Source: Saccostrea echinata
Lineage: Eukaryota
Length of the DNA stretch: 64,000 nt
NCBI RefSeq assembly: GCF_033153115.1
Contig: NW_026889754.1
Location: 14,880,001-14,944,000, forward strand
Direction of reading: 5' to 3'
The notes beneath the pieces are model-generated. The model was not told where the DNA came from. It did no database searches and saw nothing but the letters and a program-made list of their open reading frames with translations. Shown here piece after piece: positions 36,347 through 61,300 of the stretch; position 1 is the first letter of the stretch; the number at the start of each line of letters is the position of its first letter. A program made the position numbers and the translations under genes.

Positions 36347-37302
36347 TTACTCCCTGAGAGGCCTGCCTCTACCTCTGCCTCTGCCGCGGAACTCTGTTCT
36401 GCCTGAGAAGGGAGGTCGCTGGTTAACGGTCAACGGCTCCATAAAGTCTGGCCTTCCGGGTGGGAGTGGAGATGAGTGTCTTGGAGGAGGTGGTCTCAAT
36501 CCTCGACCGCGAGGTGCTGCATATCTCGAACGCCTGCGTCGACAAAGAGGGCAGCATTGGTTCATCTGTACCAGCACAGCTGAACACTCGAGACAAGCCG
36601 GTCGACGGCGACACTGGCAGCAGATGTAGTTAGACATCCGATCCTCCTCCAAGCAAACTGAACAGGAATCCAGCCTGCCTGCCGTTACTTGAATCCCCCA
36701 TCTAGGAATTGACCCCGTAGTACTCGCACCTGGTGACATCTCCGGGGTCGGGGGTGGTGGTGGTGGTCTAGCCAGCTCCGGGGAGGGTGGTGGTGGTCTA
36801 GCCAGCTCCGGGGAGGGTGCCCAGTCATCGTTGACGGGAGAGGACCAATCCGAATCAACGGATGAAGAATCCCCCTGTCCAGCCCAATCGTTGTTAACGG
36901 GAGGGGTCCAATCCGAATCTACGGAGGAATCCACTGTCCAGCAGCTGCTCCCAGGGGATGACTGGGTGACCAGGTCGGCGTAGGTGGTCTTCTTGGAGGG
37001 GACGGGCTTCTCGGGGTGTTCTCGAGTAGTTCCGGACTACTCAGAGGGGCCGAATAGGAAGCAGCAGGTGATTCTGTCCTCCACCTCCTCCTTGGCTGGT
37101 CATCTTCGTTAGTAGAAGACCTATGTCGTCGTCTTCGTCTTCTTCGTCTACTTCTCCCCCTCATCAGGTCACTGGCTAGGCCCAGAGTGGCAATAGGCCA
37201 TCTAGCCAGCTCCCTCCCGGTGATTAAGTCCCGGACAATCCAGACATTTACGACCTCAACGCCATCAACCAAAAAGTAGTTAGGAATGTCTTCCTCAGCC
37301 AT
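36347..37302 (-). CDS. Pro/Ser/Arg-rich RING-finger protein (probably one gene with a frameshift at ~36930)
   Basis: CSVCLE...CCQC....CLEC.........CPLCR; GC-rich; repeats DSSVDSDW x2 and PSPELARPPP x2; upstream TATA-like site at ~37370. Confidence 0.7.
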
Positions 37303-37820
37303 ACTGATACAGTGACTGGAAACCAGCTACTAACAGAATGACACCGAGCTCTGGCAAGCTGCCGTATTTATGCGCACAGTACGAGCGTAAAAGAGAGCAC
37401 CCTAAAGCGAGAGCCAAAAAAATCATGGCGACGTCAAATTGTGTTATTTTGTGCTTCATAATCTATACATTGGAGTGAATAACTTATTATGGGATTAGAA
37501 ATACTTGGTAACATCTTAGCCATAAGATGAAGGTAAGTTTCAGGCATGATTTCACAGTATTTTTGATGCATGATATTTATCTGTCGTCTAGAAAAGAAGC
37601 ATTGATGTTGAACCGAAGGGCTAAAATAGGGTCACCTGAATACATAAAATAAGTATTTTAACCTTTTTTAAAGTGTGATACAAGGAAAACTTAATCTATA
37701 CAATGAGATTAAACCTAGGGAAAAGTGTTGATGCTGTTTTTAAATCAAAGGAATGGTTTCAAGTGTAAAAATATACCCAGAGTCGGTTTAGGCATAGACA
37801 CAAGAAGGCGAAGGTCGGCC

Positions 37821-37851
<31 letters not shown>

Positions 37852-38292
37852 AATCACTGTATAGACTTGTATAAAGAATATAGGATTTTTTTTAAATCGT
37901 GACCTTTTCTGACTGGAATTTTTAAATAAATAAAATCAGTTTAGTTGAAAAACAATTTGAATCCACTTTATTTCCAGTGGGAATGTCTAGATGTTTTATA
38001 AATAACAATATTGATAAAACACAGCGTCTTATTACAAGACACAGCATTCTATACACATAGGCATGATTTTTTTAGGAATCCTAAAAGATTTTGAGATAAA
38101 ACAGAATCGGATTAGTTAAAAATCAATTTGTATCTACTTTAATTGAAATGGGAATAATTTTTTTTTCTTACTAAACAAAAAAATAAAATCTCAGCGTCTA
38201 AAAAATCTTAGCGTCTAAACAAGGGCACAAGATGGAGTCATATTTGTATAGAAATAATAACAAAAGACTTATTGTGTGTTCAATCTTGTTTT

Positions 38293-38493
38293 TTATTTTT
38301 TCTTTAATAATTGTTCAAACTGTCGAATTCTCCTCTGAAATCGTAATCGATCTGCTACTATAGCCATCCATGGACTTTTTCGATCTTCGGGTGGTAAATG
38401 ATGAATTTCATTGAGGCTGGTATCAAAAGTTACACACTTGTGCCTTTTAGCATTTCTGAAATTCCCACATATTTCATCCCGTATTGGATGCAT
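38293..38493 (-). CDS. GADD34/ICP34.5/DP71L-like PP1 regulatory protein
   Basis: KCVTF (RVxF-type) followed by RKSPWMAIVADRLRFQRRI; the start could be 38556 or 38493. Confidence 0.85.
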   Translation of the reverse strand: MHPIRDEICGNFRNAKRHKCVTFDTSLNEIHHLPPEDRKSPWMAIVADRLRFQRRIRQFEQLLKKK

Positions 38494-38855
38494 ATTTTCT
38501 CTACCGCTTCTATTTCCTTCCAGAGTACAAATACTTTGCTCCCTTCGGGATGACATAGAAGACTGTAAGGTTTTCCTAAATATTCGCTCATTTTCATCCC
38601 GTACATTTTTTCTGGTAGAGTCTTTTTGATCCGTTTACAAAGGAAATGTATAATCGCTAGTCTCCCCACTGTCGGATGATGTAATAAAGCCAGGCATTGT
38701 AACCACAAGTCCTGAGTGTTTTCTATGATGGTCGTCGCTCTCTGGAACACTGGTTCCGCCTCCGGGGGTAAAGCTTCTTGATTTTTCTATATACATCGCA
38801 TTAAAAAATCATACCCTTCCAACACTAAAGAGTGAGTGTGTTTATGTGTTGACAT
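38430..38855 (-). CDS. Unknown protein (~141 aa, one internal TAG)
   Basis: ATG 38855 is in frame with the 38430-38750 ORF; TATAAATA at ~38893-38901 on the minus strand. Confidence 0.6.
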
Positions 38856-38929
38856 GATAGTCAATTGTGAAGAAATGACAAGAAATGTTTTCTTATTTAT
38901 ACCCCTGTTCTTCAAAACATATATCTATA

Positions 38930-39133
38930 CAAGACGTACACAGTACGTACACCCATAATGTACTGACTGACTCAGCAAAACGTAGGTAAAACGAGAGAGG
39001 GGTACTAAGCGCGAGGGTACAAAACGTAAGTCAAACCTATTTTTGCACACGAAATCCAAAAGGGTATATAAACCAGAGCTGGAAATTTAGGATCATTCTT
39101 AGTGGGCACTTTGAACTTGACAGACGTAGAAAT
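38930..39133. promoter_or_regulatory. Divergent promoter region, inverted homolog of 17836-17962
   Basis: TGACTCA 38968, cgtacacagtacgtac, aaacgtaagtcaaac.tatttttgcac, and a leader ending in gacagacgtagaaatATGGCA shared with the left end. Confidence 0.8.
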
Positions 39134-39795
39134 ATGGCACAGGCGACGATGAATTCCGTGGAAAATCGTAATTATATTCCAGCTAGCAATGAAGGGTTAG
39201 GATATGCTCTACCGACAATGCCTGACACGCAGGATCCGATCGGATTTGATCTGGGACTTTATAATATGCCAGAACCCATGAGAAAGGAAGATATGGGCAT
39301 CTTAACCACCACTCTGGATGGCATTGTTAACATGCTGACTCAACTGAAAGAGTACAACACCAGTGAATTTTGTTTGATACGTGGGAAATTGTCCCGATTA
39401 GAAGTTAAAGTGGCTAGAATGGAAGAAAAAAATGAGAGGAAACTCTTACCAGAAAAATGAAAACACAGGAGCTGCCAAGAAAAGTAAACAGATAGACCCA
39501 TGTTTTATATGTAAAGAATTAGGACATTGGGCTCCGGACTGTCCCAGAAAAAAACAACTTATGCTACAAGTGTGGAAATTTTGGACATTGGGCCCATCAG
39601 TGCACAGATGACAGTATGGAATTTGTTAAAGAAGTCGAAAAACTGGAGAAAAAGGCTCAAGAAAACAAGACCACCCATCAGGAACATAAGACTAGTCAAC
39701 AGGATAAAATTCAGGCTAACAACAAGAGGAAACTTCCTGCTACTACAACCCAGACGGAGAAGAAACAACCCCTGAAACTCCAGAAGAAAAAGTAA
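39134..39795 (+). CDS. Right terminal protein: coiled coil, two CCHC zinc knuckles and basic tail (two frameshifts in A7 runs)
   Basis: CFICKELGHWAPDC at 39501 and CYKCGNFGHWAHQC at 39562; the last frame runs to NNKRKLPATTTQTEKKQPLKLQKKK* at 39795. Confidence 0.85.
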
Positions 39796-40129
39796 ATATT
39801 ATGGAATTTTTTGAATAAATCATCTTACAAACTTTTTTTTCTGTGTTATTGTTTTTTCCGTTTTCAGAAAATAGAGAGAGAGGCTTGCTCTGTGTGACAC
39901 ATGACGTCACAATGCATACCTAGCTGTGATTTGAATCGATGCCAAGTTTTTGTGTATTGCCTATGTATTGACTGACTCAGCGATTTTACAAACGTAGATC
40001 AAACGTACCCCCCTTTTTCACAAGACATGGGTTTTTCCATGGGTGTATACTAGATTGAACCGGCCATCTCCCCCAGGGGACAAAAAAGTGCACTCAGTTG
40101 ACCCACCCATCCAGGCTGCTAATACTACT
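39717..40129 (-). repeat. Right TIR of the Polinton
   Basis: Inverted copy of 17178-17578 plus an 11-bp extra gatcaaacgta. Confidence 0.95.
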
Positions 40130-55446: not shown

Positions 55447-56200
55447 CTAATCAGAATCATCATCGGAGTTTGTTTCACAAGCTGCATCGTGTATATTGGA
55501 CATTAAGTGGTTTTTTACTGACACATAACTACATTGATGTCTGGAGTACCCAAGATACCATATGACGCTGCATATGTGCGCGCAGCATCCTACGGTTCGG
55601 GCCCCACATTTGCACTGACAAAACCAACCAGAAATATCCGTGGATGAATATGACACCTGACCCCACCTCTGATGATTGGAGGTCCGTGTTTGCTCTGCTC
55701 CTATTTTGTATTGTTTTTGATCTTGAATACTGTTCGTTATCTCCATATATTTCATCTAATCCACAAATTATAAACAAGTTTATTTCTGTGTCGAGATTGA
55801 ATCTTTGCATGAATTAAATCACTGTCATTCTTGGACACATCAATAAGATATTGTCCATTTTCAAGATGTTCTGAAACGTAAGAACTTGCTTGTTTCAATT
55901 GGTAAACGCCAAAAGTTATTTGACGGACATAGTCCTCAGTGAGGACTGAAAAATCTGTGATAATGTCTTTGGCGTCTATACGCCTCCATGTTTTAGAATT
56001 TTCACGATATTTTAGAGAGGATACATCATCTCACCCCATTCGTTGTTTTGCTGTAGCATTTTCCTTTGACTTGAGGAGCATTTGGTAACCAACTTTAAGA
56101 TCATCGGCATCATTCGATTTAAGTGGTGGCTTGTATTTATTTATTATGCTACTCACAATTCTAATATAATCACCAATAAATGAAACTTGACTATTGTGTA
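55447..56200 (-). pseudogene. C-terminal relic of a DNA transposase with a SWIM-type zinc finger
   Basis: ITFGVYQLKQASSYVSEH, KIQSRH and WFCQCKCGARTVGCCAHICSVIWYLG in broken frames. Confidence 0.7.
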
Positions 56201-58397: not shown

Positions 58398-61300
58398 ATG
58401 GTGGAATGGTTCAAGTTATTGTGCCTTTTAGTGGTCTTCGTTGTTGCAACAGAATGCTTTGGTAATGTTGTTTAATAATTTTAAAATAGAAGAGTTGTCA
58501 ACAGAAATAATACATTTTTGCTAAATCGGACTTAAATTCAAGTTAAATGTTAAAACTTATAAAAATCAAACATTACATTCATTTTTCTTTTTTTCGGGCA
58601 GCAATTTATTTTCCATGATATACATGTATACTTGGAAATTATCCCGGTGTATTTTGCTCGTTGCGATTGTGAATCACAATCATTATAAAATGGTCTATTT
58701 TAAAAAAAAAAATACTTGTGACAGAAATGTGAAAATATCTAACAATTATCAAGCTCAAGAATTCAATTAAACAATACAGAAGCATCCTATGTCCCGTCGT
58801 GAAACCTTGGTCTTGATCCGATAAACAGCGTGATTTCTAGTAAAATAAAAACATCAGTGTAAATATAATGACCTTAAATTTGGCGCAAGCACATATACTC
58901 CCTATGCATTATTGAAAATGACTTGAATAGAGAGAATGTTCTTGCTTATGGATTTTTCAAGGTATCCTAGCCTGTATTAAAATAATTGAATATCACTCAA
59001 GTTTTTTTAGCACCTTCTCAGCTCAAGAACAATGACCACAGTAATTATCAGTAAATCTCAGCATCGACAGCACATCAACAGTATTTATAAGTATTTATCA
59101 GACTCAACAGTAAAGACGACAGTAATTATCAGTATTTATCAGAAACAACTAAAATTATCAGTAACAACAGTAAGAATAACAGTAATTATCAGTATTTATC
59201 AGAAACAACTAAAATTATCAGTAACAACAGTAAGAATAACAATAAATATCAGTATTTATCAGCAAGAACAGCACAGTATCAGTAATTATCAAACATTATC
59301 AGTAAATTTTGGGATTCTCAGCACTTTTTTCGTCCAGTAGTGCCTGTAAGTGTGACTTGGGTTTGGCTTTACTGGAATTCTTTTTTGAGTTTGGGTCTCA
59401 AATTTACATCCACCCTATATCTAAAATCTTTTTATCATTGCGTTTACGATCTAAATCGGCCTACAAGCTGTGAAATAATATGTATAAGCAAAGATATGAT
59501 TACATTGTCTTATATTTCACAAAGTATAATCATCTTCCATCAACCTATTTTTTTTATTTATTCATTTGTAGAAAATCTCAGTCAACTCTCGGAGTATGCA
59601 GGCCATGCGACGCAGAGTGAATCTTACAGGTACCCGGCCAAGTACACAGCCGACAAAGCAGTTGATGGATATTTTCAAGAAGATTTTGGTGAAGACACCT
59701 GTAGCATCACCCTAGCTAACCCCCATATTCGAAGGGCTTGGTGGAAATTCCCCTTAAAACGAAAGGCCAATGTAGCTTATTTGACAATCTTTTTTCGAAA
59801 TTCAAGTAAGATTTTTATCCATGAAAAAGAATGCGACAGTATACGTAATATTTTATCACAACAATATGATCTAATCCGAAGAGGTTTTAGCAAATAAATA
59901 TATAACGGCCTATTAAATGGTAAACATAGATATTTTTTTGTTTGTTTCAAATCTGATTTTTGGATGAAAAAAAAAAATGAAATTTATATTTGTGGAACTC
60001 TTCCGTTTTATCTGTATTTTCGTTAACTCCATATAATTAAGCAAAAATGACAGAACAAAAGAAAAAACATTCTTTGCAAACTATTTCAGCTGTCAATCGG
60101 CACACGGGATTTTCTGTTTTTGTATTTGATGACTCGTCTTTTACACCGCCTTATGGATATGGAGAAAAAGTCTATTCCCACAATCCTTCTACGTGCCCAC
60201 AGGTAGAGATGAATATAACAGTCAATAAAGTGACTCAAGGAATAGCTCTGTATAATTCAAAGAATCCTCCCTTGGACACAAACTGCACAGAATATGAACC
60301 GACATTTGCTACCATTGAAATATGCGAAGTACTTGTTATAGGTATGTTTTTCTACATGTTAGGTGCAATAGATATGCCTCTATTTTTATGCCCCCGGATC
60401 GAAAGATCCTAGGGGTATATTGTTTTTGTCCTGTCTGTCTGTTGTTAACTTAACCTTGCCCAAAACGTTTGATTGGTTGGAGCTATGACTTTCATATTTC
60501 ACATGTGTATTCAGTGTGACAAGACCTTTCTTTGGGTACCATCATATTTGACCTTGACCTTGGAGTTTGACCCACTTTTGCAAAATTTTATGAGACTTTA
60601 ACTTTGGCCATAACTTCTGAACAGTTGGTGCTTGGGGTTTCAAACTTCACATGTGTATTCTTTGTGACAAGGCCTTCCTTTGAATACCAACAACTTTGAC
60701 TCTTTGACCTTGGAGTTTGACCTACTTTTGAAAAACTTTAACCTTGACCATAACTTTTGAAGGGTTGGAGCTACGGCTTTCATACTTCACATGTGTATTC
60801 CTTGTGACAAGACCTTCCTTTGGATACCAACCACTTTGACCTTGACCTAGGAGTTTGACCGACATTTGAAAAACTTTGACCTTGGCCATAACTTTTGAAT
60901 GGTTGACTCTAGGGCTTTCATACTTCACATATGTATTCCTTGTGACATCACCTTCCTTTGGATACCAACCACTTTGACCTTTTGACCTTGACATAGGAGT
61001 TTGAACTTCTTTAGAAAAACTATAACCTTGGCCATAACTTTTGAATGGTTGGTGCTAGGGCTTTCATACTTCACATATATAATCCTTGTGATAAGACCTT
61101 CCTTTGGATACCAACCTCTTTGACCTTGATCTAGGATTGTGACCTACTTTTGAAAAACGTCAACCTTGGCTATAACTTTTGAATGGTTGATGATAAGGGC
61201 TTTCATACTTCAGATATGTAATCCTTGTGACATCACCTTCCTTTGGATATCAACCACTTTGACCCTTTGACCTTGACATAGGAGTTTGACCTACTTTTCA

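Follow-up and report, generated by a model that had tools for sequence, protein, structure and literature searches.

A predicted PPP1R15-type PP1-binding domain encoded by a decayed Polinton element in overlap with a second gene

Introduction

Viral mimics of the host PPP1R15 proteins are already known from HSV, ASFV and avipoxviruses (PMC5346070, PMC13712846). The locus described here raises the question whether a Polinton, a small integrating dsDNA element, encodes such a mimic as well, and whether its product would counter the phosphorylation of eIF2α. The locus lies in a stretch of 64,000 nucleotides, referred to below as the window. The initial annotation had reported a short ORF with the sequence KCVTF and a downstream motif of the GADD34/ICP34.5/DP71L type, had assigned this ORF to a Polinton and had regarded it as a trait of an actively infecting virus. 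Genes for host countermeasures are not new in kind for Polintons, since Bcl2, IAP and oncogene-like (Oncoid) accessory genes have been reported in animal Polintons/Mavericks (adintoviruses) by Starrett et al. (PMC8502044).

Results and Discussion

The PP1-binding ORF is placed 1.2 kb inward of the right terminal repeat of the element listed in Table 1. The flanks of the element, GTGGTA and GTGGTG, represent a 6-bp target-site duplication with five of six positions identical. Polintons are described as elements of 13–25 kb with terminal inverted repeats (TIRs) of 100–1500 bp and target-site duplications of 5–8 bp (bioRxiv 2023.08.22.554363). The element agrees with this description in its size and in the lengths of its TIRs and target-site duplication, and it encodes a protein-primed polymerase B, a retroviral-type integrase and a packaging ATPase. 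The assignment of the ORF to a Polinton is thus confirmed, as it lies within a TIR-bounded element that carries these genes. The pPolB, chromodomain integrase, ATPase, TIRs and IAP homolog are common to the element and to the animal Polintons/adintoviruses (PMC8502044).

Table 1. Positions of the Polinton element, its genes and the overlapping reading frames in the window
Feature	Position	Strand	Basis
Polinton/Maverick element, 22,952 bp	17178..40129	.	AGTAGT...ACTACT ends
Left terminal inverted repeat, 409 nt	17178..17586	+	95.0% to right arm over 422 columns
Protein-primed DNA polymerase B	18072..22721	+	PF03175 in three successive pieces
IAP (BIR + RING), open	22820..23362	+	PF00653, E 6.4e-19
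A32-like packaging ATPase	23411..23968	+	PF04665, E 2.9e-7, above cut-off
Retroviral-type integrase with chromodomain, open	26357..27442	+	PF00665 (42.4 bits), PF00385
Putative minor capsid gene, split between two frames	29628..30658	+	gene order; no family match
Putative major capsid protein, open, 473 aa	31673..33094	+	sequence motifs, gene order
Putative maturation protease	33094..33597	+	weak match to ASFV S273R, E 0.093
Macrodomain-like protein	35613..36107	+	
AATAAA overlapping the frame-B stop	38292..38297	-	sole AATAAA from TATA box up to this position; putative function
PP1-binding ORF, frame B, 87 aa	38293..38556	-	ATG-to-stop, 87 codons
66-aa form of frame B (predicted)	38293..38493	-	conserved ATG, purine at -3, open in this copy
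134-codon long form of frame B	38293..38697	-	colinear with P0001 (134 aa)
R59-x3-W63...D69-R-x-R-F73-x-x-R76-I77	38326..38382	-	alignment to CReP/GADD34
RVxF-type PP1 docking motif K40-C-V42-T-F44	38425..38439	-	alignment and pattern
Gene A, 141 codons, all-helical (predicted)	38430..38855	-	overlaps frame B
TATA-like box preceding gene A, putative promoter of both genes	38895..38901	-	putative function
Right terminal inverted repeat, 421 nt	39709..40129	-	95.0% to left arm

We presume the minor capsid, major capsid and protease functions at 29628–30658, 31673–33094 and 33094–33597 from sequence motifs and gene order. The major capsid candidate gave no match in Pfam, PHROG, NCBIfam or the PDB, and its single-sequence fold reached a pLDDT of 32. 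Inside the polymerase, a weak nuclease-domain match (PF18741, E 0.0037, below cut-off) is reminiscent of the polymerases with a VSR domain that are described for Polintons of molluscs (bioRxiv 2023.08.22.554363). The DNA flanking the element may be of a bivalve type.

The copy of the element in the window is decayed, because the polymerase is broken by a stop codon (20337–20339) and by a MITE-like insertion (21271–21885), the putative minor capsid gene is frameshifted, and premature stops are found in gene A and in the long form of frame B. The insertion comprises 615 nt with 18-nt perfect inverted ends and has no other copy in the window. The identity of the terminal repeats is 95%. For this copy, with its broken genes and diverged TIRs, the description as an actively infecting virus is not supported; it is a decaying insertion in which the PP1 domain is still open.

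Several further features of the element were recorded. The IAP gene (22820–23362, +), the macrodomain-like gene (35613–36107, +) and the PP1-binding ORF represent three candidate host-countermeasure genes in one element. The region 36347–37302 (-) is rich in proline and arginine, spreads over two overlapping frames with a RING-finger match (PF13920, E 0.0013, below cut-off), and is possibly one spliced or frameshifted gene for an E3-ligase-like protein. PF02407, Viral_Rep, is the N-terminal domain of the rolling-circle Rep proteins of ssDNA viruses; weak matches to it (E 3.6e-4 and 8.4e-3) are found in two tandem paralogues, 34187–34555 and 34906–35391 (+), which share 73% DNA identity over 290 nt. 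A promoter-like block occurs four times in the element (38959–39050, 28403–28492, 34761–34847 and 17830–17947). Nine AP-1-type TGA(C/G)TCA sites are present in the 23-kb element versus three in the remaining 41 kb of the window. The sub-terminal ORFs 39134–39795 (+) and 17500–17835 (-) share their start and end through the repeats, and the former contains two CCHC zinc knuckles in different frames.

The assignment of the ORF product to the PPP1R15/GADD34 family was based on profile, structure-database and residue comparisons. The Pfam profile PF10488 (PP1c_bdg) matched the 87-aa ORF with an E-value of 2.8e-6 and 27.6 bits, which exceeds the curated gathering cut-off of 26.1; the 134-codon form, with stops read as X, scored 30.0 bits. 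In a phmmer search of the PDB, the ORF matched CReP/PPP1R15B (4v0x, E 1.8e-5) and ASFV DP71L (9nb9, E 1.7e-4), and CReP (4v0x, 4v0u) and DP71L (9nb9) were its sole PDB matches at E<0.001. The PP1 docking pattern RVxF is [RK]-x(0,1)-[VI]-{P}-[FW]. Upstream of the conserved arginine of the ORF it is matched by K40-C-V42-T-F44. The KCVTF sequence occupies residues 40–44 and is followed, after a spacer, by RKSPWMAIVADRLRFQRRIRQFEQLL; both elements noticed initially are therefore present, with 14 residues between KCVTF and RKSPW and not about 13 as first counted. When all six frames of the window were scanned for a loose RVxF...R...W...D..RF pattern, a single instance was found, versus none in 300 triplet shuffles of the element.

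In GADD34, the contact residues are V556/F558 of the RVxF motif, R578 in the PP1 pocket, and the actin-recruiting W582, F592, R595 and I596 (PMC10743859). By alignment, V42/F44 of the ORF are equivalent to V556/F558, and R59, W63, F73, R76 and I77 correspond to R578, W582, F592, R595 and I596. The contact residues listed in that article align without gaps between the ORF and CReP, the VxF-to-R spacing of which is identical to that of the ORF, and the equivalents of R658, W662, F672 and I676 of CReP are kept. The segment 38326–38382 thus corresponds by alignment to the part that contacts the PP1 arginine pocket, eIF2α and G-actin. The RVxF motif, the predicted PP1-contact residue R59 and the predicted G-actin-contact residues W63, F73, R76 and I77 are all encoded within the final 46 codons of frame B. 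With PF10488 above its cut-off, matches to CReP and DP71L, and the contact residues kept, the family assignment made at the outset holds: the ORF encodes a domain of the PPP1R15/ICP34.5/DP71L type.

Like the ORF product, ASFV DP71L (PDB 9NB9) is a bare PP1-binding and eIF2α-binding domain. The two share the RVxF motif, R..W, DRxRFQRRI and the leucine at position 57 of DP71L. The ORF differs from DP71L in its linker, in a serine in place of glycine (also found in the ASFV variant P0050), in its weakly supported position in the tree, where it is not placed as a sister of DP71L, and in its location on a 23-kb integrating element in overlap with another gene. The F-to-R linker has the length of the CReP linker, one residue longer than in DP71L, and the CReP linker gives weaker PP1 binding (bioRxiv 2025.02.28.640897). 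In comparison with PPP1R15A/GADD34 and PPP1R15B/CReP, the ORF is devoid of the ER-targeting helix, the PEST repeats, the N-terminal eIF2-binding regions and the C-terminal actin helix (W616–R620 / F696–Q700; PMC10743859), and even its long form is below 140 aa versus about 700 aa in the host proteins. HSV-1 ICP34.5 and canarypox CNPV231 are, according to their descriptions, viral captures of the same C-terminal module (PMC5346070, PMC13712846). The RARA motif of ICP34.5 and GADD34 is absent from the ORF, as it is from DP71L.

Relatives of the ORF were collected with an exhaustive HMMER search of 1.84 billion representatives of a library clustered at 50% identity. At E≤0.001 this search yielded 24 unnamed proteins of 38–190 aa with less than 50% mutual identity, many of which are stand-alone ORFs of 52–85 aa. 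PF10488 was found at E≤0.1 in all 24 and above its cut-off in 12. A word-indexed homolog search with the 87-aa ORF returned no match, whereas the HMMER and profile searches did. A family profile built from 18 of the relative sequences matched DP71L (E 1.4e-14), CReP and GADD34 chains in the PDB and nothing else at E≤0.01. Among 726 candidates, it matched 35 proteins. Two of these are ASFV DP71L proteins and one is a PPP1R15B-like protein of a fish; the other 32 are unnamed or labelled "hypothetical" and are encoded on contigs of 530–4,318 nt. The first match in the ESM Atlas was a 71-aa cluster (score 0.92; recognition 1996, below the tool threshold of 2300) with PF10488 on 29% of its members; its commonest phylum, Preplasmiviricota, derives from one member only. 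This suggests that an unannotated record of this ORF type is already present in Preplasmiviricota. No relative of the ORF was found among 408 pattern matches in GTDB genomes, and the phage records gave no match for either the ORF or the capsid candidate.

The tree of the family comprised 56 columns and 49 rows, with four of the 52 relatives dropped for want of an anchor and with no invertebrate host protein included. The comparison with host and viral proteins places the ORF beside its best relative, P0001, and apart from DP71L and the fish protein, albeit without strong support, as no well-supported set in the tree contains the window ORF.

Two departures in the sequence bear on a possible action of the ORF product on eIF2α. 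According to Rojas 2015, as cited in PMC5346070, eIF2α binding follows the consensus Rx[Gnl]x1-2Wxxx[Arlv]x[Dn][Rg]xRFxx[Rlvk][Ivc]; the ORF deviates from it at one position, S61 for G/n/l. A serine at this position is found in 46 of the 48 anchored relatives (near-duplicates included), in the fish PPP1R15B-like protein and in one ASFV DP71L. Only two of the 48 satisfy the strict consensus, versus 38 when serine is allowed, and the sequences that then pass include the fish protein and the ASFV DP71L. The second departure concerns the C-terminus. The ORF ends three residues past the position of DP71L L57; in terms of the LSAVL segment of DP71L, the L57 equivalent is present as L84 and the L61 equivalent is absent. 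The L61 position is hydrophobic in 40 of the 48 relatives, and eight end at or before it, one of these being a 38-aa fragment. In DP71L, the L61A exchange leaves an activity of 57% instead of 98%, and 18% remain when residues 57–66 are deleted (PMC5346070). Since P0001 ends almost as early as the ORF, the short tail is a trait of the lineage and not a result of decay.

The serine and the short C-terminus leave some doubt on the activity towards eIF2α. It is conceivable that in this sub-lineage, owing to the short C-terminal helix, the product has little or no function as an eIF2α adaptor and instead sequesters the PP1 to which it binds or directs it to other substrates. The missing L61 equivalent and later actin helix would agree with this, as would the finding that DP71L without residues 52–66 still binds PP1, does not dephosphorylate eIF2α and may sequester PP1 (PMC5346070). 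We nevertheless regard this explanation as unlikely, for the ORF has retained R59, W63, D69, R72, F73, R76 and I77 as well as the counterpart of L57, and the eight relatives mentioned also end at or before the L61 position. Viral domains of similar size are active: DP71L binds PP1 and dephosphorylates eIF2α (PMC5346070), forms a PP1–eIF2α–G-actin complex and suppresses the effect of all four kinases (bioRxiv 2025.02.28.640897), and in CNPV231 a similarly sized domain is sufficient (PMC13712846). An eIF2α-dephosphorylating activity of the ORF product is thus likely but not certain.

The ORF is open as initially called, but it is not free-standing, since its first 41 codons overlap a second gene, designated gene A, and its start codon is not conserved. 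The ATG at 38556 is absent in P0001 and has a weak context with T at -3. The alignment to P0001 extends beyond this position, across an in-frame stop (38637–38635) that breaks the long form in the window copy, back to an ATG at 38697. This ATG and the one at 38493 are both conserved with respect to P0001 and have A at -3. From the sequence, the 66-aa form starting at 38493 is favoured as the product. The short DP71L of 70–72 aa is close to it in length, and a domain of such size suffices (PMC5346070).

Gene A has a premature stop at 38789–38787. It is a real gene, because it has an intact 140-aa relative, P0027, with 84/137 (61%) identity and an E-value of 2.5e-42. Searches of Pfam, PHROG and NCBIfam assigned gene A to no family, and its ESM Atlas matches stayed under 0.8. 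Its structure model is all helical with a pLDDT of 58 and gave no match in BFVD at E≤0.001. A short YGMK repeat was noticed within gene A.

Frame B is the -1 frame of gene A and covers its 3′ two-thirds, and the PP1 domain starts where gene A ends, the terminal stop of gene A (38432–38430) being located in the V-T codons of the RVxF motif. P0001 and P0027 can be read from one DNA at the offset found in the window, with 87 of 88 overlap codons compatible and a longest run of 61, versus at most 10 in 200 shuffles. The stop of gene A falls at V-T of VxF in this pair as well as in the window. At least one further element has thus kept the overlap; the context of the overlap-showing relative is a 1,013-nt contig, which is not established as a Polinton. 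In more distant relatives a shadow of gene A was rejected, P0001 being the sole positive among the 17 of 52 relatives that were scored (11 were left out because their N-termini were too short).

The identity of frame B to P0001 is 34/46 (74%) after the stop of gene A versus 38/85 (45%) in the overlap. Within the overlap, single changes fall 21 times on codon position 1 and 10 times on position 2, about equal numbers being expected under the null model; position 1 of frame B is the wobble position of gene A. Constraint in frame B thus falls on the domain itself. These figures bear on another explanation, in which part of a host PPP1R15 gene was captured and is now carried along, inert and untranslated, within the 3′ untranslated region of gene A. 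The domain does follow the stop of gene A, probably on one common transcript on which many ATGs precede it, and much of the frame-B overlap resembles a shadow of gene A. An inert fragment is nonetheless highly improbable, because gene A is less well conserved (61%) than the domain (74%) when these two elements are compared, many relatives stand alone as ORFs of 52–85 aa, and in the poorly resolved tree the ORF groups with unnamed short proteins and not with the single host PPP1R15B-like protein included.

The arrangement of the frames could also mean that genes A and B are fused by -1 frameshifting or splicing, which would tie the PP1 module to the helical protein A. Besides the frame relation itself, a U UUU UUA heptamer in gene A at 38808 and the openness of frame B, with one stop over codons 53–141 of gene A versus 5.4 expected, point in this direction. 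The openness is only suggestive, given that 11 control genes are also depleted of stops in their -1 frame (196 observed, 255 expected; one gene at 0.3 of the expected number). The heptamer is incompatible with the matching residues of P0027, the candidate splice acceptors contain at most five pyrimidines in 12, and for the acceptor nearest to the motif the relative cannot have a counterpart of equal phase. A conserved route by frameshifting or splicing is hence unsupported, the heptamer being unconserved and the acceptors weak, and we consider a fusion very unlikely.

The reading that we prefer is a separate, minimal adaptor encoded by frame B. Genes A and B probably share a 3′ end, as the first AATAAA after the TATA-like box overlaps the frame-B stop. 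On a transcript from this box, nine ATGs precede the one at 38493, so that simple scanning would translate it poorly. ATF4 and GADD34 have an overlapping upstream ORF and are translated mainly when eIF2α is phosphorylated. The PPP1R15 mRNAs are under uORF control (PMC10743859). The overlap with gene A might act in a similar manner, the adaptor being made mainly under eIF2α phosphorylation and providing the 23-kb element with an ISR feedback of its own. It is quite unlikely that both this switch exists and the unnamed short PF10488 proteins are widespread stress-response antagonists of animal Polintons. The motif variant R-x-S-x-W is present in nearly all of the clusters (50% identity) of the 24 relatives; an ATF4-type CARE site was not found upstream of gene A.

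We propose that the protein would dock on host PP1 via KCVTF, while the downstream helix would recruit G-actin and phosphorylated eIF2α. Removal of the Ser51 phosphate of eIF2α would then allow translation to continue during replication of the element or particle assembly. The PP1 module may act in parallel with the element's own IAP and macrodomain genes. That the ORF counters eIF2α phosphorylation is a well-founded inference from knowledge of the family. We proposed with less confidence that the product is the 66-aa form, or the 134-aa form in intact relatives, and that frame B may be translated from an mRNA sharing the 3′ end of gene A. An oyster PERK that responds to poly(I:C) has been reported (PMC9680061), so a bivalve host, if this is what the element resides in, would possess a pathway to be targeted. 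Taken together, the Polinton lineage probably encodes a minimal PPP1R15 mimic that is a working adaptor; expression from the copy in the window is rated as less probable than this.

The kind of viral mimic is known, and the module has already been explored as a stress-response inhibitor, with 391 orthologues tabulated (bioRxiv 2025.02.28.640897). We could not find the Polinton carrier and the overlapping gene arrangement described, and to this extent they are new. No report of a PP1/eIF2α module in Polintons was found in the literature searched, though subscription papers, Repbase or bioRxiv supplements could hold one. None of the matches listed linked Polintons or adintoviruses with DP71L, ICP34.5, PPP1R15 or eIF2. 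The available text of the coral polintovirus paper (PMC11131425) and of two 2026 preprints mentions no PP1 or eIF2 module, and that of PMC8502044 mentions none for the adintoviruses, unlike the element in the window.

PPP1R15 mimicry, known from herpes-, pox- and asfarviruses, would with this locus also be represented in a dsDNA element that is small and integrates. A constrained anti-shut-off gene near IAP and macrodomain genes would lend indirect support to the idea that the Polinton cycle provokes cell-intrinsic defence, and it bears on the question whether animal Polintons have an infectious phase. That the domain is conserved speaks for selection acting within the lineage and leaves an infectious and a purely intracellular cycle unseparated; an intracellular self-replicating element could also gain from blunting the stress response. 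The known PPP1R15 mechanism is unchanged by these results, and the window copy does not prove present-day activity. The relatives supply natural minimal variants of the PPP1R15 module.

Further observations were made outside the element. Two fragments in its flank, 2346–2650 and 3484–3682, are 78–81% identical to the 5′ region of the polymerase and are judged from this identity to be relics of a second, older Polinton. A broken ORF at 55447–56030 (-) has a weak SWIM zinc-finger match and is probably a transposon relic. The region 59286–60412 (+) comprises two probable host exons with an extracellular lectin-like domain, which has no Pfam match and which we take to be typical of bivalves. In the GTDB genomes, a relative with 30% identity to the capsid candidate is encoded on one 1,387-nt contig (WPAE01000227.1), which was binned in a bacterial MAG and is probably a mis-binned fragment of a Polinton-like virus.
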